Shown: positions 2,874 through 64,000 of the stretch, piece after piece
Layout of the letters: each line of letters starts with the position of its first letter
How positions within the stretch are numbered: position 1 is the stretch's first letter
Assembly (NCBI GenBank): GCA_965223295.1
Contig: CBDCWC010000003.1
Coordinates: 320,001 to 384,000 of the forward strand
DNA length: 64,000 nucleotides
Origin: Nitrospirales bacterium
GTDB taxonomy: Bacteria > Nitrospirota > Nitrospiria > Nitrospirales > UBA8639
Reading direction: 5' to 3'
The notes under the pieces: generated by a model
Seen by the model: only the letters and a program-made list of their open reading frames with translations
Databases searched by the model: none
Told to the model about the DNA's origin: nothing
Position numbers and translations under genes: made by a program

Positions 2874-3544
2874 TCATCCGACCTCATCATATATCCGCTC
2901 CCCCGAATCGTTTGGATTAAATTTCGTTCGCGTCCTTTATCAATTTTATTCCGCAGATAACTAATATAGACATCGATCACATTCGTAAAGGTATCAAAAT
3001 CTAAGTCCCAGACATGCTCCGCAATCATCGAGCGGGTCAACACCCGTCCAGCATTTCTCATCAAATACTCTAAGAGCGCATATTCCTTGGTCGTGAGTTC
3101 CAAGCGTTGACCATCACGAGTCACCTCTCGCGTCACAGGATTTAACACCACATCATCGACTTGCAAGACTCCCGTGGGAGCACCTCCCGCTCGTCGTAGT
3201 AAGGCTCGAGCCCTCGCCAATAGTTCTTCAATCGCAAAGGGTTTGGTGAGGTAATCATCCGCACCGGCATCCAGACCTTTGACGCGCTGATCCACTTCCG
3301 AGCGAGCGGTTAAGATGATCACTGGGGTTTTCACTCCAGCGACACGGGTACGCTTTAACACTTCAACCCCTGGCAGACCCGGCAACATTAAATCTAAAAT
3401 AATCAGATCGTAATTCACGGTTTGCGCCCAATCCGATCCACTCACCCCATCAGTACAGACATCGACAGCATAACTCTCTTCTTCTAAGGCACGCCGAATA
3501 AACGACGCCACTTTGGGTTCATCCTCTACAACTAAAATTCGCAT
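2870..3544 (-). CDS. OmpR/CusR-family response regulator
   Basis: MRILVVEDE, LDLMLPG, GADDYLTKPF, winged-helix end TNVIDVYISYLR..QTIRGSGY. Confidence 0.95.
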   Translation of the reverse strand: MRILVVEDEPKVASFIRRALEEESYAVDVCTDGVSGSDWAQTVNYDLIILDLMLPGLPGVEVLKRTRVAGVKTPVIILTARSEVDQRVKGLDAGADDYLTKPFAIEELLARARALLRRAGGAPTGVLQVDDVVLNPVTREVTRDGQRLELTTKEYALLEYLMRNAGRVLTRSMIAEHVWDLDFDTFTNVIDVYISYLRNKIDKGRERNLIQTIRGSGYMMRSDE

Positions 3545-54058: not shown

Positions 54059-55097
54059 CTAATTAACTAACCTATGTTTTATTTTTTTTATCTTGTTTAT
54101 AGTATTTGGACCAAAGAGTTTACATATTAATAATAGTATTTTTTTATCTAAACCAGAATTAATAAACTTCGTAACAACATTAGCATCACAGAAGAATTCA
54201 ATTTCCCCAGTACTCCATACAAAAGCATCACCCTGGGTACATTTTTCTGTAAAACTTGGAAATATTTGTTTTTTGTTTCTAAAATGCTTTTCTAAAATTT
54301 CTCGATGGTCTATCATTCCTGAATATCTACAATCAAGGTTTTGTTCAAATAATATGCCTTTACCTCCAAGCATTGAAACCATCCCTCTTGAATAGTTGTC
54401 CACTTGCTCAATAGATAACTCTGGAAACGATAGCGTGTTGATTGCCAGGTCAAGTTTCATTGTCTTTGAAAAATCATCGAAATAATAGTTCGGTACAAAA
54501 CAGAAGTTTTTACTCTTTTGAGGCTGAGCCTTATCAAAAATGATAACTTCATCAAAAACTTTGTTTACATACAAATACACTGCTGAAAAAAGCATTGATT
54601 CAGGTAGATCACAAATACAATAATTTACAAATGGGAAGATTTGCTTGATATACCGCGCTACCCCCCCATACCCTGCACCAATTTCTAAAACATTAACTTC
54701 TTCTCCCTGCTTGTTTTTCTCTTCAATTTTCTCAAAAATTCCAGCTTTATACATTAAATAGATACGTTCAGAGGTGGCATAAAAATCATGACTAACGGGA
54801 AAACCATTTACTTCCCACCCAATTTCACCTAAAGACTTACTATTCTCTATTTGATAAACATCAGGAATATAGTTAATAATTTTATTATATTTGTTGAGCC
54901 ATTTTTTAGATTTAACAATATTCTTCCTAATAATTTCATCAATGTCATCTCCAATCGAATTAACTGATGATTTTCCGAATGCATTAGAAAATGACAAAAG
55001 TTGGTATCCAGAAAAGGCTTGAGAGAACAATCTTAACTTATCAATTGTCGATCTATTTCCATTAACGATCCTATAATATGCTTCGTAGAAATCATTA

Positions 55098-56481
55098 GAG
55101 CTATTGTCAAATCTGGTGTCTGGATGATTGATTACGCGGCGACGGGTTCCTGTATTTCTAGGCCATCGGTAAATTGAATGCCCTTGATCACTTGAGCCAA
55201 CTGTTTGAAGCCCCGGAGCCGTCGCCAGGTCTTCTCCGCACAGCGTCCCAACTTGAACATCATGTGTAACATCCCATCTCGCGTCAGACAGCCTTTGGTG
55301 CGCTTGGTTCGGTGGCGAATCGTGGCAAAGGTCGATTCAATGGGATTCGTGGTTCGTAGACTTTGCCAATGGGCTGCGGGAAACGCATAGAACGTTAGCA
55401 AGGCCTCCCGATCTTTCTCCAAACAGGCCGTGGCCTTCGGGTACTTGGCTTCATAGGTCGTCAGAAACACGTCGAAGGCTCGGATGGCATCGGCTTTGGT
55501 CTCCGCTTGCCAGATTTCGTGCAAGGCCTGTTTCGCTTTGGGCTGCACACTCTTGGGCAAGGCATTGAGGACATTCCGCGTCTTGTGCACCCAGCACCGT
55601 TGCTGCTGCGTGGTGGGATAAATTTCCTCCAAGGCGCCCCAGAAGCCCAAGGCCCCATCGCCAATGGCGACGCGGGGCGCCTTCATGCCACGGGCCTTTA
55701 GCTGGAGCAGCACTTCTCGCCAACTCTGCGTCGACTCCCGCACCCCATCTTCGATGGCTACCAGCTGTTTCTCGCCCGTGCTGGTCACCCCGATGACCAC
55801 CAGGGCGCAGAGCCGCTGCTGCTCAGCCCGGAGCCCACTGTAAATCCCATCCACCCAGAGATAGACCCACTCCTCTTTATCCAGCCGTTGCTGGCGCCAG
55901 GTGTGGTACTCCTCCCGCCAGGTTTGTTTGAGCCGTGCGACGGTACTCGCGGAGAGCCCTTGGGCCTCAGGGCCCACTAACGCTTCCAAGGCCGCCTGCA
56001 TCTCCCCTGTCGAGATCCCTTTCAAGTAGAGCCACGGAATTGCGGCATCCAGTGTGGCCGATTTCCGGACATACGGCGGCACCAACGCCGAGTGAAAGCT
56101 GATTGGTGCCCCCTGACGACTCCGCACCTTCGGCACTTTGACGGACACTGGCCCGAGGCCGGTTTGGATGTCTCGTTCCGGCTGATGCCCATTGCCGACG
56201 ACGATTGCTCGCCCTTGCTCATCCTGTTGATCCGCATAGTGAGCCAATAATTCGGCTCGCTCGGCCTCCAAGGCCTGGGCCAGAAGTTGCCGAGCCCCGG
56301 TTCGAAGCAACTCGGTTAACATATCCCGGCTCACTGGTTCTTCTGCTGGTACTTTGCTACGCTCTGGCATCGTGGCGTCTCTCCTTTTAGTGGTTGATCT
56401 GAGGATGTCTTGCAACACCCATTTCAACCCGAGACGCCGCGTCTTTTCAACTCACCCAAACACCACTTTCAATCTTAACTC
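55098..56481 (-). mobile_element. IS256-family insertion sequence (1384 bp)
   Basis: 9-bp TSD AAATCATTA (55089-55097 and 56482-56490); imperfect TIRs GAGCTATTGTCAAATCTGGTGT / GAGTTAAGATTGAAAGTGGTGT. Confidence 0.95.
55132..56370 (-). CDS. IS256-family transposase
   Basis: YLWVDG, IGDG, QRCWVH, RTTNPIES; ATG 56370 after AAGGAG; intact ORF. Confidence 0.96.
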   Translation of the reverse strand: MPERSKVPAEEPVSRDMLTELLRTGARQLLAQALEAERAELLAHYADQQDEQGRAIVVGNGHQPERDIQTGLGPVSVKVPKVRSRQGAPISFHSALVPPYVRKSATLDAAIPWLYLKGISTGEMQAALEALVGPEAQGLSASTVARLKQTWREEYHTWRQQRLDKEEWVYLWVDGIYSGLRAEQQRLCALVVIGVTSTGEKQLVAIEDGVRESTQSWREVLLQLKARGMKAPRVAIGDGALGFWGALEEIYPTTQQQRCWVHKTRNVLNALPKSVQPKAKQALHEIWQAETKADAIRAFDVFLTTYEAKYPKATACLEKDREALLTFYAFPAAHWQSLRTTNPIESTFATIRHRTKRTKGCLTRDGMLHMMFKLGRCAEKTWRRLRGFKQLAQVIKGIQFTDGLEIQEPVAA

Positions 56482-56914: not shown

Positions 56915-57761
56915 TTCAAACCCTGCGCACCAGGTATTACTCGCTAAAACAAAAGCCCCATCGATCCTAAAATTGGATCTTTATCACTAAAGACCGTTAG
57001 AAAAGGCTTCTCAAAGGTCGTGAGTTGCTCAAAAGTCTCAGCGCATTCTTTTCTTTGTGTAGGCACTAAACGAGGGAACACTTTCGCACCTGCTTTGTAG
57101 GTATTGTCGGGAAAAGGTGCATCATAGGCACGAATGACCTCTCGACTTAGCTTGGTCGTGGTGGCCATATTGATAAGCTGCCCGATTTTCATTTCTGGGA
57201 TTACCTGAGAAAAAACATACCAGCCGCTAAAACCTACAAAGGTTTTTAGCATTGGCACGACCAAATCCTTCGCTGGTAAATTTTTATGTTTAGGGGGCTT
57301 ACCGGGCAAACCGGTGTTACCGGCTACAACTCGAGAAAACCAATCGGGATGTTTGGCGACGATTCTTAAACCAATGAGACCACCCCAATCCTGACAAAAT
57401 AAATTAATATTTTTTAAGGCTAAGGTTTCCATAAAGTTTTCCATAATATCCAAGTGGAACTGAAAACTGTAATCGCTCTGCTTTACAAACTTATCGGACT
57501 TACCAAAACCGATTAAGTCTGGCGCAATTGCACGAAAGCCTGCATCGGCAAAAATAGGAATCATTTTTCGATATAAATACGACCAACTGGGTTCGCCATG
57601 CAACATTAAAACGATCTCACCATCCTTGGGTCCTTCATCAACATAGTGCATACGCAGGCCATCGATATCTACGTATTGTTAGGCTGGAAGGGATAATCCT
57701 CTAGATTTTCGAAACGCTCTTCTGGAGTGCGAATGACTTCCTTATATGAATACGTAGCCAT
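56915..57761 (-). pseudogene. Haloalkane dehalogenase pseudogene
   Basis: RTPEERF..YPF, MHYVDEG, HGEPSWSY, QDWGG. Frameshift near 57677, in-frame TAG at 56944-56946, catalytic-His segment missing. Confidence 0.85.
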
Positions 57762-57886: not shown

Positions 57887-58294
57887 TTAGCTCATCGGCA
57901 AGGGTGCTTCGTCCATTAGATGTAATATGCCTCGAACAATACGATAAAGCACCCAAAGCCCCGTGAAAATAATAATCACGATTGCGACAGGGATGCCCAC
58001 AACGGTAACAAACATCAAACCCGCAAGCACAATGGCGAAAGCCGCATACCAGAACGTTGTTATCATCCAAGAGAAGTGAGACTCAAGATACGTACCTCTA
58101 GCGTCACCTCGCTTAGCGTAACTTAAAATAACCGCAATAATAGAAGGCCAGCCCGTGAGAAAAGCAGTCACCACAAAGGCCTGAGTCATGACACCAGTCA
58201 AGGCACTAAAGCCATGCAAGGCATAAATAATATAAGCCACGCCCACCAAACCCGCACTAGGGGCCCCATCAATAAACAACTGTTTATCTGGCAT
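57887..58294 (-). CDS. DUF4870-like small membrane protein
   Basis: 3-4 TM; IYAL, YAKRGDARGTYLESHF.W.ITTFW, YRIVRG pattern. Confidence 0.75.
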   Translation of the reverse strand: MPDKQLFIDGAPSAGLVGVAYIIYALHGFSALTGVMTQAFVVTAFLTGWPSIIAVILSYAKRGDARGTYLESHFSWMITTFWYAAFAIVLAGLMFVTVVGIPVAIVIIIFTGLWVLYRIVRGILHLMDEAPLPMS

Positions 58295-58641: not shown

Positions 58642-58914
58642 ATGTGGGTAGTTTATGAGAAGAGACCGGTCTTAAAAATTCTTGATCGGCTTCCTTCTGA
58701 TGTTTTATTAAAGTATGAAGCTTGGAAAAGGATCGTCGAGTTAGAGGGTCCGATAGGTCTTCGGTCTATTAAGGGGTTTCACGATGAAGCCTTAAAGGGG
58801 AATTGGAAAGGCTATCGATCATCCAGATTAGGCAAGAAATGGCGCGTGATTTACCATATTGCGAAAGGGCAACTCGAAGTGTACGTCGTTGAAGTCATGG
58901 CACACACGTATTAA
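58642..58914 (+). CDS. RelE-superfamily (HigB/YafQ-like) mRNA interferase toxin
   Basis: 90 aa, basic; EALKGNWKGYRSSRL..KWRVIY, C-terminal H-x-Y. Confidence 0.85.
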   Translation: MWVVYEKRPVLKILDRLPSDVLLKYEAWKRIVELEGPIGLRSIKGFHDEALKGNWKGYRSSRLGKKWRVIYHIAKGQLEVYVVEVMAHTY

Positions 58915-58929
58915 CCTGGGAGAATCCAT

Positions 58930-59196
58930 ATGGCGATGAATAAAAAGGAATTCGTGCGAGCCAAAGTGAATCGTAAGATTACACCTGGCGAAATGCTACG
59001 GACCCTAAGGGAATTACAAGAATTCACACAAAAAGAACTTGCGAGTGCAACAGGAATCTCGCAATCCAATATCTCGGCTATGGAAAATGATAGGAGTCAA
59101 ATAGGCCGAGAACGGGCTTTGGTCTTAGCGAATGTGCTCAAAGTTCATCCCGCTGTGATTCTTTTCCCCGACTTTGACATTGCCCAATTTGCCTAG
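58930..59196 (+). CDS. XRE-family HTH antitoxin (HigA-like)
   Basis: TPGEMLRTLRE..TQKELA..GISQSNIS.MEN; follows the toxin gene. Confidence 0.85.
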   Translation: MAMNKKEFVRAKVNRKITPGEMLRTLRELQEFTQKELASATGISQSNISAMENDRSQIGRERALVLANVLKVHPAVILFPDFDIAQFA

Positions 59197-59908
59197 GGCA
59201 AGAGCAAAAAGACCCCACAGTTCTTAAAGACCCCTAATCCCGCCGGGTTCACAAGCTTCCCTCTAGATTCCGGTTCAAGTTGTGAGTCGACTCTCCCTCT
59301 GTGCCCCGCGCCTACCCACATATACCACAATGCCCCCCGACGGGCCCAATCCAAGAACAATGAGCCGGTCAGCCCTCACTCACAGGAGATACGCCCGCCG
59401 GTCGCACAACCACATCTGGGGATGGAATCCCCGATGAAGTTTTTGGTCCTTGGCGATTCTCTCAAAAAGGCCGTCTAAAATTCCTATTCCCAAAAGGACC
59501 ACAGGACATTAGTCAGTTTGCTGGAGTTCGCATCACTGGAAATATTCCTTTTGGACCATCTTTGCTCTAGCTTCCTGTTCAATCGCTACTTAGTCTGTAT
59601 CTTTTTAGAAAAAAATTTATCTGAAATGATACAGGATGATTAGTCTTTTCCTGATTTTTACGAACGCATCCATCAAGACCCCGCCTACCTAAGATTAGTG
59701 CTCTCACTAGAAATTTCACCCCATGGACTTTAGATAGACCAAATCTAGGCGCTGATGCCTTAACGAGACTTTTTCCCTTTTGAATCTCAGCCTAGATCTT
59801 GTGATCCAACCTAGAATTTTCACCCATTCCTGATTTATATTGCAGCCTTTGGCCTAGGTGAAAGAATCCTACTCTTCTCCGCTCAGGAGTAAAAACAAGG
59901 AGGTTCCC

Positions 59909-60118: not shown

Positions 60119-60569
60119 ACATCGGTCATAACCTAAGTTCTGTCGCGAGTACACCATCGATTTTTAAAAGCTCTGACCGATTGCTGGCATTCCAAGGTGA
60201 GGGCCAAAAACATTTTTGCAGGAGATTGATTGCCTCACACCAATATCTTTATCTGCCCTTCCTTGATTGTGCCCTTCACTTCAAAACCGGCTAATATTCA
60301 TTGAGTCCCATGCGCACAAAGAATGAATGCTTCGGTAAATCATCAAATACGTGCCATTTTATTTACAGAAAATAAAGCTTACATATCTAATAATATCGTG
60401 TTTGAAATAATGGCCATTGTTATATTTCAAAGAATCCGATACGGTGCACATGGACGTTCCAAGACGAGGCATTACCTTGGGCCAACACTTTCTTATTGGA
60501 TGTCTGAATAAAGAATTTTTATAGAAAGCATTATTCATTATCAAATTTCATCAAATTACGGAGGGGAAC

Positions 60570-63497
60570 ATGAGTCGTCTTTCACTTGCGTTATCAAAAA
60601 CCACTTTTCGCAGCCGAAAGAATGTTGAACGTACTCTGAAGAAGATCAATTACGATCCTGTAGAATTGGCCCCTGCTTTCCTAAATATATGTAATGAAAG
60701 TCAAGAGAATGGTGTAAAGCTAGCTGAAGCCTACGCCGTTGGACTAAAAGATTCCGAGCAGCATCGTGAAGTGTTTCAGCAGGTTTCATTAATGCCAAAA
60801 ACAGTACGCAAATCCTTCATCAAAGGGTATTGCAATGTGGGACAGGGTCGAGGCGTCGTGCATGCCATCAGTCAATTACCTCGGACACAGGGGCGCACAC
60901 TTATGGAAGATTTTGTAATAAAAGAGGACAAATCGAAGAATGAAGCTGCTATTGAGGAAGTTTTGTATTGGTTACGTGATGCGGGCAGAGAAATGCGAAG
61001 ACTTGAAGCGGACCATGCCCAATCAATACCGCTTGCCGGAAGTGATTCTGCTGTAATTGAATTCTTTGAGGATGTTGCTGATGCAATTTCTGATGCCGTA
61101 ACTGCAGTGGTTGATGCAATTGTGAGCGTTGCGGAAACGCTAGCCGAAGCAATCGTTGACGTTGTCAACTGGGTGGCTGAAGAAGTGGCCGATCTTGTTC
61201 GAGCCTTAATAGAAGCTGGCAAGACTATCTTCGATCTATTAGAAGCAGCTGTTCAGACTGGTTATCAACTTGCGAAGAAGATAATAAAGGCTTTGGAGGA
61301 CGTTGGAAAGGCAATGCGGGAGATTCTTGAATCAGCATTCAATTTAGCTAAGGATGCTCTCGTTACTGTATTGAAAGCAATTGACCAGTTGGGACGTACG
61401 TTGGGTGAACTTCTCGCGGAGCTTGCGACGAAGACATTTGATATTGTCAGAAAGGGTATCGAGGCATTGTTGGAAATTGGAAAATCAATTGGAAATATTC
61501 TGCAGCAGGCGCTGGAATTTGGTGCAACATTAATCACAAATACCGTCAGAACGCTCTTAGAAGTAGGGAAAACAGCGCTAGAAATACTGGTGGCTGCAGT
61601 CACCCGCCCTGGTCAATTATTCGATCAAGTCGTCGCGTCGCTCAAAAATCTTGGTAAAACCGTCACGGAACTTTTTGATGATGTAGTGAACGCTGGCGCT
61701 GACCTTATCCGCGAGGTTGCTGAAGCAGCAGCCAATGTAGGAACGGCCATTGCAGAGTTTACATCGTATATAGCCCAAGCCACTATTGAGGTTGCAACCA
61801 AGATTGTAGAAGGGTTACTAAAAGCAGGGAAAACACTAGTAGACATGGTAGCTTCCATCGCCCAACACGGATTTGAGGCAATAAGGAAGGTTGTTGATTC
61901 TGTCTTCAAGCTAGGAAAAAGCTTTATCGGTCTGCTTCGTGATGTGGCAAAACTTGCTTTTGATTCGCTTAAAGATGTTGTGCGTGCCGCTTTTGATCTA
62001 GGGAAGACGATAGCAGAGTTCACACTTTCGATGGTGGAATTCACCTATCGCACGGCCGCGAGGTTCATCCAAGCTGCTCTGGAGGTTGGTGCAACTGTGG
62101 CTGAAGTGCTCGAGAGCGTGGTCTCGAAGACATATTATGTGCTGCGTAAGATTGTAAATGGGGTACTGCAGGCTTTGGGGCCTGTCGGAGATATTTTTCA
62201 GTGGTTAATAGATCGTGGAGAGGAGCTAGCTTCGAAATTATGGCGTGAAACAGTTCTTGCAATCCGCTTTGTAAAGAAAAGTGTTACCGAGGTGTTGGAT
62301 TGGGCTTTTGCCAAGGGTCAAATTTTTTTAGATCGAATGATAGAAATTGTTGAAGATATCGGTGAAGCAATAATTGACATAATCGAGTGGGCGCAAGCTA
62401 CTGGTGATGCAGCTCTTGAGGCGCTAGGGGAGGCAACCGTTCGAGCGCGCAACTCGGTAAATTACGTTCTCAGCTATCTTGAAAAGGATCTTATCCCTGG
62501 TATAGCCAAGTTTGTGAAGGGTGTTCTTCAAGCCGGCTATGAAATTGGACGACTGGTTGCCTGGATGGCAAGCCGTAGCCTTCAGATCGTTACCGAGGTT
62601 GTTAAGGCGTCTCTTGAGGCGGGAGTTACCTTGGCGGTACTAATTACAGAAACAGTAGCGCATCCTGACCAAGCATTAGAGAATCTTTTGAGAGCTGCCC
62701 GCACTCTGGGGCAAACACTTGAGGATATCTATCAGGCCGTTATTGTAGAAACAGAAGAGCAATTTCTGGAACAAGTGACGCTGACCTTAAACAACCTAGA
62801 AGAGCCAGTCAGAGATATAATTGAAGCAGTTGCTGAAACAGCCACGGGAGCAATAAGTGCCACTATTAGTATTCTCCTGAACGAATTAGCTACTTATAGA
62901 CCGCTGACAGAAAATGAGAAAATGGACGCTAGAGTTGTCTATGGTGATACCATTGACCTCGAAAACACCTATATTTCTGCTGAGAGTTTAGTAAACAAAA
63001 TCATTTTCGGCATCCAAGACTGGGCCACAGGTAATCCTACCTCACGTGCATTTGTCACGAATAACCTCATTAATTTTGATGTTAATGAGGCAATTGATAT
63101 TGATGGCCAAGGCACTTTAGGAGTTAAGAGATCTACATTCATTCATGAATTGAGTCACGTATGGCAATCCGAAGTTGAAGGACCTTTTTATATGTCAGAA
63201 GCCATTCATGCACAAGCTGTAGGTGGTGGCTATAACTATGGATATAACGAATCTCTGGGGAATATCGCTGTGCCCATAGACTATATTGGAACTACAGAAA
63301 TGCTAAATAATGGTTTTTCGACAGGAGAAGGAGGCCAGGATGCACTCAATACAGCCGCTGGAGATTTCGATGAATTCAATCGTGAGCAGCAAGGGCAGAT
63401 TGCCATGCACTACTTTGTCAGGAGAGTGCTACTTAATCAAACTCCAACAGAGTATGAACCTTGGCAACCCTATGTTAATGCTATACAAGCAGCATAA
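60570..63497 (+). CDS. Alpha-helical 29-aa repeat protein with C-terminal HExxH metallopeptidase-like domain
   Basis: GGAGGGG RBS; about 20 repeats over residues 188-773; FIHELSHVWQ at residues 857-866. Confidence 0.88.
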   Translation: MSRLSLALSKTTFRSRKNVERTLKKINYDPVELAPAFLNICNESQENGVKLAEAYAVGLKDSEQHREVFQQVSLMPKTVRKSFIKGYCNVGQGRGVVHAISQLPRTQGRTLMEDFVIKEDKSKNEAAIEEVLYWLRDAGREMRRLEADHAQSIPLAGSDSAVIEFFEDVADAISDAVTAVVDAIVSVAETLAEAIVDVVNWVAEEVADLVRALIEAGKTIFDLLEAAVQTGYQLAKKIIKALEDVGKAMREILESAFNLAKDALVTVLKAIDQLGRTLGELLAELATKTFDIVRKGIEALLEIGKSIGNILQQALEFGATLITNTVRTLLEVGKTALEILVAAVTRPGQLFDQVVASLKNLGKTVTELFDDVVNAGADLIREVAEAAANVGTAIAEFTSYIAQATIEVATKIVEGLLKAGKTLVDMVASIAQHGFEAIRKVVDSVFKLGKSFIGLLRDVAKLAFDSLKDVVRAAFDLGKTIAEFTLSMVEFTYRTAARFIQAALEVGATVAEVLESVVSKTYYVLRKIVNGVLQALGPVGDIFQWLIDRGEELASKLWRETVLAIRFVKKSVTEVLDWAFAKGQIFLDRMIEIVEDIGEAIIDIIEWAQATGDAALEALGEATVRARNSVNYVLSYLEKDLIPGIAKFVKGVLQAGYEIGRLVAWMASRSLQIVTEVVKASLEAGVTLAVLITETVAHPDQALENLLRAARTLGQTLEDIYQAVIVETEEQFLEQVTLTLNNLEEPVRDIIEAVAETATGAISATISILLNELATYRPLTENEKMDARVVYGDTIDLENTYISAESLVNKIIFGIQDWATGNPTSRAFVTNNLINFDVNEAIDIDGQGTLGVKRSTFIHELSHVWQSEVEGPFYMSEAIHAQAVGGGYNYGYNESLGNIAVPIDYIGTTEMLNNGFSTGEGGQDALNTAAGDFDEFNREQQGQIAMHYFVRRVLLNQTPTEYEPWQPYVNAIQAA

Positions 63498-63511
63498 CAT
63501 CTTAACTCCTC

Positions 63512-64000
63512 ATGGTCATAACAATTGTCACTCCAGCTTCGGCCATAAGGCCACTGGAACCACTACTGCAAGCATACCGCCGAAAGAACTATTCCGTATG
63601 CTTTGAGATAGCAAAAGATTTCTCAATGTTGCCTCAGTTTTTACAGAGGATTACAGAAAAAACGGATGCCACATTAGTTATTGGCCCACGAAAACGATCC
63701 CCCAGGACAGCCATACGTGGGCCTGTATTAAGGTGTGGTGGGGGAAAGTTGATCCCTGTTGGATATGTTCCCGATATGGGAGGGAAAGCCCTAAATGTTT
63801 TTGCTCAAACAGCAGCCCATATTCATCAACGAGTACCCGCATTACAACCTATTGCTATTCTTTCTCAATGGAATCCGCAATATCTGAGACTCGCAACCCG
63901 AATAGAAGACCTTCTCCGAATACAAAAAAACCCTGTATTTCGTTGGACAAGTGATTTAATCCTTCGGGAAGACATGGTTCCTGGCCTAAGATCGGGGTTA
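63512..64000 (+). CDS. Partial ORF, probable peptidase C25 (gingipain-like) family; runs off the window
   Basis: 163 open codons from ATG 63512 (MVITIVTPASAIRPLEPLL..TLVIGP..IPVGYVP..REDMVPGLRSGL); starts 14 nt after the previous stop. Confidence 0.65.
   Translation, partial: MVITIVTPASAIRPLEPLLQAYRRKNYSVCFEIAKDFSMLPQFLQRITEKTDATLVIGPRKRSPRTAIRGPVLRCGGGKLIPVGYVPDMGGKALNVFAQTAAHIHQRVPALQPIAILSQWNPQYLRLATRIEDLLRIQKNPVFRWTSDLILREDMVPGLRSGL

Follow-up and report, generated by a model that had tools for sequence, protein, structure and literature searches.

The genes for a 975-aa protein, here termed M975, and for a 304-aa cysteine peptidase related to the gingipains lie side by side at the end of the 64,000-nt stretch of Nitrospirales bacterium DNA analysed here (the window; G000:C3:320001-384000, where G000 is the source genome), and they form a pair which is conserved, horizontally mobile and accessory. 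By analogy with known systems, the pair may constitute a self-contained effector module, in which a cytoplasmic mini-gingipain would process or hold a tape-measure-like metallopeptidase, with the lipid chemistry encoded next to it being an add-on in this clade. A probability of roughly 40% is given to this reading.

The original prediction, made from the window alone, had pointed to an open reading frame (ORF) which starts 14 nt after the 975-aa gene and remains open for 163 codons up to the edge. This frame is indeed present (63512-64000, + strand, ATG start), and in locus L002, which includes the next 12 kb of the same contig past the window end (window coordinate = L002 coordinate + 58000), it closes after 304 codons, giving a gene at window 63512-64426 (L002 5512-6426). 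The sequence patterns that had been quoted for it (IVTP..L.PL, LVIG, IPVG.VP and L.SGL) are all found in the translation. Five genes on the + strand succeed one another here, coding for M975, the 304-aa peptidase, an 87-aa acyl carrier protein (ACP), a 377-aa ketosynthase (KS) and a half-ketosynthase (half-KS) of ~207 aa. The gap between the peptidase and ACP genes is 35 nt, the ACP and KS genes overlap by 4 nt (GTGA) and the KS and half-KS genes also by 4 nt (ATGA); given these overlaps at the last two gene junctions, the cassette is consistent with a single operon. The M975 and peptidase genes are both real: a GGAGG sequence precedes the ATG of M975, and many phyla contain homologues with 38-68% identity.

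The downstream product had been predicted to be a C25-like peptidase of clan CD, and extension past position 64000 had been proposed as a means of finding its His-Gly and Cys residues. Both were found, these being His171 (context VYVGHGRP) and Cys204 (SLCCRTASR), with codons 22 and 121 nt past the window edge, and both are invariant in 21/21 homologues. In the alignment of these 21 diverse sequences, the invariant residues are Y168, G170, H171, G172, R173, C204, T206, S208 and R209. A profile built from them was compared with solved structures and gave PorU as the best match (E 0.0048), with RgpB at E 0.0071, across the GHG...Cys core; the histidine of the GHG motif aligns with RgpB His211 and the second cysteine of the CC motif, Cys204, with RgpB Cys244. 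Of the 2505 candidates from a word-indexed search, 274 were relatives at E <= 0.001, with a length of ~300 aa in nearly every case. Most of the listed homologues carry a precomputed hit to Pfam PF01364 (Peptidase_C25), and NCBI gives several the name 'C25 family cysteine peptidase'. In the wider family the cysteine is kept in 106/106 sequences and the histidine in 101/106.

The AlphaFold model of the peptidase has a predicted local distance difference test (pLDDT) score of 86.8 and a predicted template modelling (pTM) score of 0.89, the exception being the invariant loop 174-183, which is disordered. It possesses the caspase-haemoglobinase fold with both gingipain catalytic sub-domains, and aligns with RgpB (1cvr) at Z 28.1 and a root-mean-square deviation (rmsd) of 3.1 Å over 284/304 residues (model 1-292 to RgpB 10-351) and with Kgp at Z 25.8, the range for RgpB and Kgp being an rmsd of 3.1-3.3 Å with 281-285 residues aligned. 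Foldseek also matches the model to RgpB (E 4.1e-12, TMq 0.75). Weaker fold matches were obtained with separase (Z 16.6) and with the CHAT peptidases of Craspase and SAVED-CHAT (Z 11-14). Profile, dyad and fold thus bear out the assignment to C25. As the fold alignment takes up residues 1-292 of 304, there is no space for added domains, and the N-terminus is beta-strand 1 of the modelled fold. The signal peptide, pro-domain, Ig-like domain and type IX secretion system (T9SS) C-terminal domain of the secreted gingipains are all absent from the 304-aa peptidase, which is therefore predicted to be cytoplasmic. That neither protein of the pair has a signal peptide was also claimed originally, and a crude hydrophobicity check agrees, with the maximum Kyte-Doolittle value over 19 residues being 1.25 for the peptidase and 1.6 for M975. 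Judged by its model, the peptidase is predicted to be essentially a bare gingipain catalytic domain with its His/Cys dyad intact. Like RgpB and Kgp, it has the whole catalytic-domain fold, with His-Gly and then Cys in the same order; unlike these, with which it shares 13% identity, it lacks all secretion parts and is found in many phyla beyond Bacteroidota.

The upstream protein had been described as a repeat-metallopeptidase, and this description holds, its repeats being helical and its C-terminal domain a zinc metallopeptidase. When the C-terminal domain of M975 was compared with 48,161 chains by VIA-align, the first match was VgrG2b (6h56_B; Z 12.7, rmsd 3.6 Å, 158/179 residues aligned, 24% identity, model 755-970), which also came first with Foldseek (E 6.2e-3, probability 1.00, TMt 0.58). 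The domain is modelled at pLDDT 70-93. At motif level, phmmer aligns FIHELSHVWQ of M975 with FIHEMTHVWQ of VgrG2b, and FNREQQGQI with YNIEQQGDI. The HELSH sequence occupies residues 859-863, and H859, E860 and H863, which are invariant in 23/23 sequences, align with H935, E936 and H939 of VgrG2b, while E939 aligns with E983. E939 is nearly invariant in the 23 sequences and Q941 is invariant, and the motif HExxH[VT]W is present in 101/102 strong M-like ORFs. The C-terminus of M975, on the strength of this model, is predicted to be a complete zinc-metallopeptidase domain of the VgrG2b type, a gluzincin, with all four catalytic and ligand residues present. In those sections of the VgrG2b report that are available, H935, E936 and H939 are given as the catalytic and zinc residues and the protein as an antibacterial toxin acting in the periplasm, for whose toxicity the HExxH motif is required (PMC6899460). 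The same sections describe the domain as toxic in the periplasm only, with midcell blebbing as the result, and as belonging to a group usually labelled DUF4157 and without a known substrate (PMC6899460). The likeness to this effector domain of the Pseudomonas aeruginosa H2 type VI secretion system extends to the fold, the HExxHVWQ sequence and the third-ligand glutamate in N-x-E-Q-Q-G. Unlike VgrG2b, the M975 gluzincin is not fused to a VgrG spike or other secretion part, and no small immunity-like gene follows it.

The remainder of M975 is helical. Its N-terminal domain (residues 1-145) is modelled as all-helical at pLDDT 80-89; it has no Pfam match and its structural matches are generic helical ones (Z 8-9.7). 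With a profile of this domain, 96 representatives were identified at E <= 0.001 among 1.84 billion proteins. The repeats that follow give a self-similarity peak at an offset of 29, with more at 58, 87 and 116, so that the period is exactly 29; each repeat is amphipathic and regular and ends in a conserved glycine, mostly followed by Lys or Arg. These glycines are invariant or near-invariant at positions 246, 275, 304, 333, 362, 391, 420, 449, 478 and 507 in the alignment of 23 sequences (A2), the mean column identity of which is 61%. Among the PHROGs, 12 of the 15 families matching the helical region (~160-780) are tape-measure families, the best being phrog_1272 (E 4.9e-18) and the matches extending down to 3e-4. 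The same region matches Pfam Phasin_2 with 35.1 bits against a cut-off of 24.9, with weaker matches to ApoLp-III, PhaP and BAR, and a ZorA-tail-like match to the repeats (E 2e-8) was the sole hit given by PADLOC. The whole protein has a net charge of -45 and contains no hydrophobic stretch of transmembrane grade. Proteins of the M975 type carry the automatic cluster name 'phage tail protein' and the JGI name 'phage-related protein', and 'hypothetical' is also among the database names for the two proteins of the pair. Two positions were considered and set aside as processing sites in M975. D159-x-A161, which follows the N-terminal domain and is invariant in the M975 family, was dropped as a caspase-like cleavage site as a sister family (described below) is without it, and the invariant Arg777, a candidate for cleavage of the Arg-gingipain type, was judged more likely to be structural, as the model places it in strand 1 of the gluzincin domain.

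The distribution of the two genes was examined in 58 loci from a pattern scan of one genome per species, a locus being evaluable where it has enough DNA on the relevant side; the 58th locus, L022, begins 92 nt ahead of the peptidase gene. Full-length M975 homologues (40-68% identity) are present in 57/58 loci, and the conserved pairing which had been proposed as a check of the prediction is found throughout, an M975 homologue lying directly upstream of the peptidase in all 51 evaluable genome loci; the refuting outcome named with the prediction, homologues that are not neighbours elsewhere, thus did not occur. Such locus-based counts were used since a word-indexed search with M975 returned 12 proteins only, its repeat words saturating the candidates. 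Judged by record titles, the carriers span at least nine phyla, including Pseudomonadota, Bacteroidota, Acidobacteriota, Chloroflexota, Campylobacterota, Gemmatimonadota, Actinomycetota, Krumholzibacteriota and one Thermoplasmatota bin. Strains of Aequorivita, Lacinutrix and Nitrosospira are among the cultured carriers.

Searching with the N-terminal domain also identified a sister family of M975 (~650-790 aa), which possesses the same N-domain, repeats and gluzincin, together with intermediate clades. In the sister family (P0209, P0223, P0225 and L062-L071) the repeats are strongly basic and rich in Lys and Arg, whereas those of M975 are acidic, and the C25-like genes beside it have diverged strongly, scoring 19-112 bits with the family profile. 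A metagenome scan with the sister family yielded 80 loci, of which 55 have a strong M-like gene and 51 of these at least 900 nt of downstream sequence. By the profiles built in this work, a C25-like gene lies directly downstream in 46 of the 51, or in 47 if L077 is counted, the neighbour of which was missed by the profile and scores 30.4 bits, above the Pfam C25 cut-off. The other four profile misses are L069, where hhalign gives the neighbour a weak match to the family profile (probability 47%) and YWGHG and FSCST are kept; L066, where a ParA/NUBPL-type ATPase follows; L071, which has no C25 candidate; and L070. Both ACP and KS were found in 17 of the 51 loci, and the remaining 34 have the pair without ACP or KS in the locus. 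The lipid chemistry therefore cannot be the core function of the system.

In a quick maximum-likelihood tree of 106 peptidases with midpoint rooting, the KS-bearing loci form one large clade, the KS-less pairs form deep branches and the phyla are intermixed; the M975/peptidase pair is older than the five-gene cassette. The five peptidases of the 106 that have lost the histidine (L079, L089, L090, L092 and L096) make up one KS-less clade, in which it is replaced by Arg, Gln or Glu. This clade keeps the cysteine and also its adjacency to an M-like gene with an intact HExxH. The retention of both gene and adjacency after loss of the histidine argues for a physical partnership that goes beyond catalysis, and these proteins may be pseudo-peptidases which still bind their partner.

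In the genome loci, the pair is followed by the ACP gene in 56/57, the KS gene in 52/53 and the half-KS gene in 47/50 evaluable cases. L013 has the pair only, without ACP or KS, and for L034 and L042 the one query used did not detect a half-KS. The KS residues Cys139, His272 and His306 are conserved in at least 95% of 54 sequences, and D44-S45-L46 of the ACP, which contains the DSL serine, in at least 95% of 56. The KS is closer to the Protein Data Bank (PDB) entries 9s5h_B (E 1.8e-74) and 6kxd (E 8.1e-55), its nearest matches, than to FabF, and the protein lies under all NCBIfam cut-offs (FabF 273.5 vs 493.75 bits; AmcF 228.9 vs 325), AmcB (35.8 bits) also being matched in the set, likewise below its cut-off. 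The half-KS matches only KS N-terminal positions 115-203 (E 0.06) and residues 88-191 of FabF, and has an Arg at the position of the FabF active Cys; it is not a full-length chain-length-factor partner. No reductase, dehydratase, acyltransferase or thioesterase is present among the five genes. L078, L080 and L084 belong to a clade that otherwise lacks KS, yet carry on the opposite strand a KS and an ACP of more distant kinship, with an AMP-binding ligase also present in L080. With the cassette profile these KS genes score 187-192 bits, the range being 442-590 bits where loci within the KS-bearing clade hold a complete KS gene.

In one relative, P0114 (286 aa, from a 1282-nt metagenome contig), the peptidase runs in frame into the ACP; it is the sole case and may be a natural fusion or a sequencing error. 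A search for longer forms gave one protein, the 1093-aa P0133, which was rejected as a garbled assembly, its peptidase, ACP and KS stretches being partly out of frame. Apparent fusion ORFs in L054, L055 and L058 were likewise rejected, as they result from the longest-ORF rule in GC-rich DNA and their tblastn pieces lie in different frames.

In the favoured interpretation, the mini-gingipain would be a dedicated partner of M975, which it would either cleave, for example by removing the N-terminal domain or freeing the metallopeptidase, or hold. M975 would be the effector, its helical body engaging a membrane and its gluzincin attacking a target in the envelope or in division, as suggested by analogy with tape-measure proteins and VgrG2b. 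The outcome could be self-lysis, abortive infection or antagonism, and in this clade only the effector or its target would be modified by an acyl chain from the ACP/KS set.

A number of observations weigh against this interpretation. VgrG2b is toxic only in the periplasm, which leaves the route of a cytoplasmic M975 to its target unexplained, and the pair has neither a signal peptide nor a transmembrane segment, and neither a secretion system nor a small gene of immunity type. The source genome, which is 100% complete, has no gene for a contractile sheath (PF04984) or TssC (PF05943). Elsewhere the flanking genes (99 flanking ORFs from 15 metagenome loci) are mostly of the housekeeping type and not related to defence, and PADLOC-DB 2.0 (2023) has no model matching the M975 metallopeptidase, the peptidase, ACP, KS or half-KS. 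No conserved candidate cleavage site was found in M975 in the alignment of 23 sequences together with the sister family. With regard to the domain assignments, the search against Peptidase_C25 that had been suggested gave a match at E 1.2e-4 covering profile positions 212-373 of 374, which is the catalytic half, but its score of 21.8 bits stays below the gathering cut-off of 23. Pfam DUF4157/eCIS_core (PF13699) has no match at E <= 10 with either the C-terminal 215 aa or the whole of M975, and surfaces only as an Atlas-search lead (rank 3, score 0.89). The central region of M975 is modelled at low confidence (pLDDT 32-65), and its tape-measure and phasin matches may reflect in part a shared helix composition rich in Ala, Val, Ile, Glu and Lys.

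Other explanations of the locus have to be considered. The gingipain-fold enzyme could be a transpeptidase or acyltransferase and not a hydrolase, in which case the cassette would be a machine for protein lipidation or transamidation with a lipid-anchored effector as its product; protein and lipid would be joined either through a thioester with M975 or by taking the acyl chain from the dedicated ACP. PorU, the closest sequence-level PDB match of the peptidase profile, is a C25-like sortase of the T9SS by which a C-terminal domain is exchanged for an amine linked to lipid; the glycosylphosphatidylinositol transamidase and legumain-type ligases are further members of clan CD. PorU itself (6za2) is a 1156-aa outer-membrane protein of type IX secretion, whereas no T9SS context is seen here and many carriers belong to phyla not known to have a T9SS. 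Also in keeping with lipidation are the position of the ACP gene directly after that of the peptidase, the in-frame read-through of P0114, the recruitment of KS and ACP in two distinct gene arrangements, the lack of another acyltransferase in the cassette, and the disorder of loop 174-183 beside the catalytic His, as would be expected of a site ordered by a partner. However, two thirds of the distant loci (34/51) manage without ACP and KS, P0114 is a single short contig, and neither an amine-forming enzyme nor an acyl-accepting residue was identified, so that a lipidation machine is considered unlikely. Lipidation could also be combined with activation, the gingipain-fold transamidase or acyl-transferase coupling a chain built by ACP, KS and half-KS to the tape-measure-derived protein, which would then insert in the membrane of its own cell and bring the metallopeptidase to the envelope, giving a self-contained suicide or lysis device independent of any secretion system, as in abortive infection; this more elaborate scheme is regarded as decidedly unlikely.

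A structural or housekeeping role is also rather improbable. M975 would in that case coat or scaffold a lipid body, membrane or granule in the manner of a phasin, an apolipophorin or a BAR protein, and would be matured by the peptidase, with KS and ACP making the associated lipid. The regular, amphipathic repeats and the Phasin_2 match above its cut-off, with the weaker ApoLp-III, PhaP and BAR matches, would suit such a coat, as would the helical fold matches to BAR-domain proteins and the phasin PhaP (Z 9.6-11.6), although these Z values are within the uninformative range of the tool for helical repeats. It is harder to reconcile with a complete toxin-type gluzincin conserved in all but one of 102 members, with a very patchy distribution (0/24 of the other genus genomes searched) and with a repeat charge that is acidic in M975 and basic in the sister family. 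That the pair is a domesticated remnant of a phage tail, namely a tape-measure protein with a lytic peptidase and a processing protease, serving a tail-like particle encoded elsewhere, appears very unlikely. The 12 tape-measure families, the phage-related protein names and the precedent of Tme, an effector of the Streptomyces contractile injection system with a DUF4157 domain and a tape-measure-like region according to the available sections of its report (PMC11126660), speak for it; on the other hand, none of the loci that were clustered or scanned has phage or tail genes beside the pair, the sheath and TssC genes are missing from G000, and the peptidase has neither a PHROG match nor a viral structural relative in BFVD at E <= 0.001. 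Least credible is a natural-product cluster, in which the five genes, together with a Pro-rich ORF and two B12-binding radical S-adenosylmethionine (radical-SAM) genes lying downstream of them, would form a pathway for a polyketide or for a ribosomally synthesised and post-translationally modified peptide (RiPP), with the C25-like protein as leader peptidase or thioesterase. The ACP, KS and half-KS do resemble highly reducing type II sets of the polyketide synthase (PKS) type in their AmcF and AmcB scores and their 9s5h_B and 6kxd matches, and a TIGR03975 radical-SAM gene (697.6 bits) lies 3.7 kb downstream. The radical-SAM genes and the Pro-rich ORF, however, are matched in 0/58 genome loci, a direct-repeat copy separates them from the cassette, most of the distant relatives have the pair without KS or ACP, and a pathway of this kind offers no place for a conserved protein of 975 aa that bears a peptidase of the toxin type.

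Reading the pair as an effector with its own peptidase invites comparison with several known systems. Bacterial gasdermin systems and MARTX toxins have a clan CD protease which is thought to process the large effector beside or within which it is encoded. Like these and other modules of a caspase-fold protease with an effector (gasdermin-protease, SAVED-CHAT, Craspase TPR-CHAT/Csx30 and the MARTX CPD), the present pair has a protease encoded beside a large putative effector and a patchy, accessory distribution; unlike them, it has no sensor or nucleotide-binding domain and no gasdermin effector, and its protease is of the gingipain type and not CHAT or C14. The release of toxin domains by clan CD peptidases is an established theme in the part of the literature account available (PMC3482391). 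M975 shares with phage tape-measure proteins its long regular helical repeats, but differs from these in having no tail genes nearby, no predicted transmembrane helices and a strict 29-residue period; tail genes for chaperones, tube and baseplate are not among the clusters shared by more than 10 of the 58 genome loci or the 99 flanking ORFs of the 15 metagenome loci. Tme, as described in the sections available, likewise joins a DUF4157-type domain to a tape-measure-like region, with that domain being N-terminal in Tme whereas the gluzincin of M975 is C-terminal (PMC11126660). The lipid genes compare with the KS, chain-length factor (CLF) and ACP of highly reducing type II PKS-like sets (AmcF/AmcB of cispentacin and the polyene-type KS of 6kxd and 9s5h), with which they share a Cys-His-His KS, a DSL ACP and a partner devoid of the active Cys. 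In contrast to those sets, the cassette has no ketoreductase, dehydratase, acyltransferase or tailoring genes, its partner is of half size and it is linked to two peptidase genes.

NCBIfam has no model for either M975 or the peptidase, and no description of this gene combination was found in the literature searched (open-access PubMed Central and bioRxiv), so that an account in a subscription journal is possible. While its parts are all recognisable, their fixed combination as a free-standing, widely transferred module without a secretion or tail apparatus is undescribed in that literature. The pair could represent an effector with a dedicated clan CD peptidase, and would be more unusual still if the ACP/KS link reflects protein lipidation. 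The interpretation originally offered, of a proteolytic cascade in which the C25-like enzyme cleaves or is scaffolded by the repeat protein, is as a whole partly supported. The ACP, KS and half-KS genes past the window, the tape-measure likeness of the repeats and the VgrG2b/DUF4157 toxin type of the metallopeptidase did not form part of it. If the peptidase processes M975, a gingipain-type branch would be added to the modules of caspase-fold protease plus effector, a family known mainly from secreted virulence proteases would gain a cytoplasmic role, and dedicated acyl-carrier chemistry would possibly be tied to the maturation of a protein effector. As the family is small and sharply defined, this can be put to a direct test by cloning four or five genes and making point mutants. 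The positions of the features in the window are given in Table 1.

Table 1. Features of the M975/peptidase locus and its upstream flank, in window coordinates
Feature	Position	Strand	Basis
M975 gene: N-terminal domain, 29-residue helical repeats, C-terminal gluzincin	60570..63497	+	ORF; homologues
Shine-Dalgarno GGAGG, 5 nt ahead of M975 ATG	60560..60564 (L002 2560-2564)	+	read from sequence
N-terminal all-helical domain, residues 1-145, without assignable family	60570..61004	+	model, profile search
Long helical region, ~residues 160-780, tape-measure/phasin-like	61047..62909	+	PHROGs, Pfam, PADLOC
~12 tandem 29-residue repeats, residues 189-536	61134..62177	+	self-similarity, alignment
Predicted VgrG2b-type (DUF4157-like) gluzincin domain, residues 755-975	62832..63494	+	VIA-align, Foldseek, phmmer
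HExxH zinc-binding/catalytic motif, H859 E860 H863	63144..63158	+	alignment, VgrG2b match
Glu939, predicted third zinc ligand (NREQQG)	63384..63386	+	aligns with VgrG2b E983
C25/gingipain-fold peptidase, first 163 of 304 codons	63512..64000	+	ORF, Pfam, model
Low-copy direct repeat, copy 1, ~100 nt	59391..59493	+	repeat search
RelE/ParE-like toxin gene	58642-58914	+	weak Pfam: YafQ/YoeB/ParE/HigB, E 3e-4 to 5e-3
Helix-turn-helix (HTH) antitoxin gene	58930-59196	+	Pfam HTH_3 E 4.6e-13
Mutator/IS256-family transposase	55132..56427	-	PF00872 E 2.6e-68

Among 41 genomes searched, some of them incomplete, the peptidase is present in G000 alone, with 0/24 of the other genomes of the genus and 0/16 others of the order having it. 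In G000 the cassette sits after a Mutator-family transposase gene and a pair coding for a RelE/ParE-like toxin and an HTH antitoxin. The location in an island of insertion sequences and toxin-antitoxin genes, on which the original prediction drew, is thus real in this genome, although other loci do not share it. From one lineage to another the flanks are unrelated, and clustering of all ORFs from the 58 genome loci gave no gene beyond the five cassette genes that is common to more than 10 loci. The GC content of the cassette (0.41-0.50) is not distinct from that of its flanks, Rfam gave zero matches across 18 kb of the locus, and consensus scans for promoters and terminators did not rise above shuffled sequences (9 vs 14.4 expected and 7 vs 8.8 expected, respectively).

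Single cases of other neighbourhoods were seen, the pair of L090 adjoining a type III-B CRISPR module. The KS-less pairs of L086 and L096 lie near GH46 and peptidoglycan-binding genes, an antagonism-like neighbourhood not seen at other loci, and that of L086 is also near genes for a Tle1-like phospholipase, a patatin, an LGFP-repeat protein and an astacin. In the window, a 323-aa ORF (54059-55030, - strand) and a hydrophobic 135-aa ORF (57887-58294, - strand), both without a Pfam match at E <= 0.001, lie among the transposase gene, an alpha/beta-hydrolase gene (56944-57651) and the toxin-antitoxin pair.

The 3.78-Mb genome contains only six matches to a direct repeat of ~100-150 nt, the copies of which share 77-88% identity and have zero Rfam matches. 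Three copies are in this locus (window 59391-59493, L002 8755-8856 and L002 14242-14310). Copies 1 and 2, which are 7.36 kb apart, bracket the five-gene cassette, copy 2 lying just after the fifth gene and past the window, and the Pro-rich ORF with the radical-SAM set lies between copies 2 and 3. Two others on the same contig (L142 ~2047-2152 and 3433-3535) flank a single SGNH/GDSL-like gene beside a VapBC-like pair. The repeat may mark cassette boundaries or be a shared regulatory element. The Pro-rich ORF (L002 9742-10272, + strand; G000:C3:387742-388272) begins ~3.7 kb past the window and codes for 176 aa rich in Pro, Gly and Trp, in which a unit of ~21-23 aa (DPAPW-PGGGF-PRWPVP) is repeated in tandem three or four times. 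It is directly upstream of the two B12-binding radical-SAM genes, one of which belongs to the TIGR03975 RiPP-maturation C-methyltransferases, and together they look like a multi-core RiPP precursor with its maturases.

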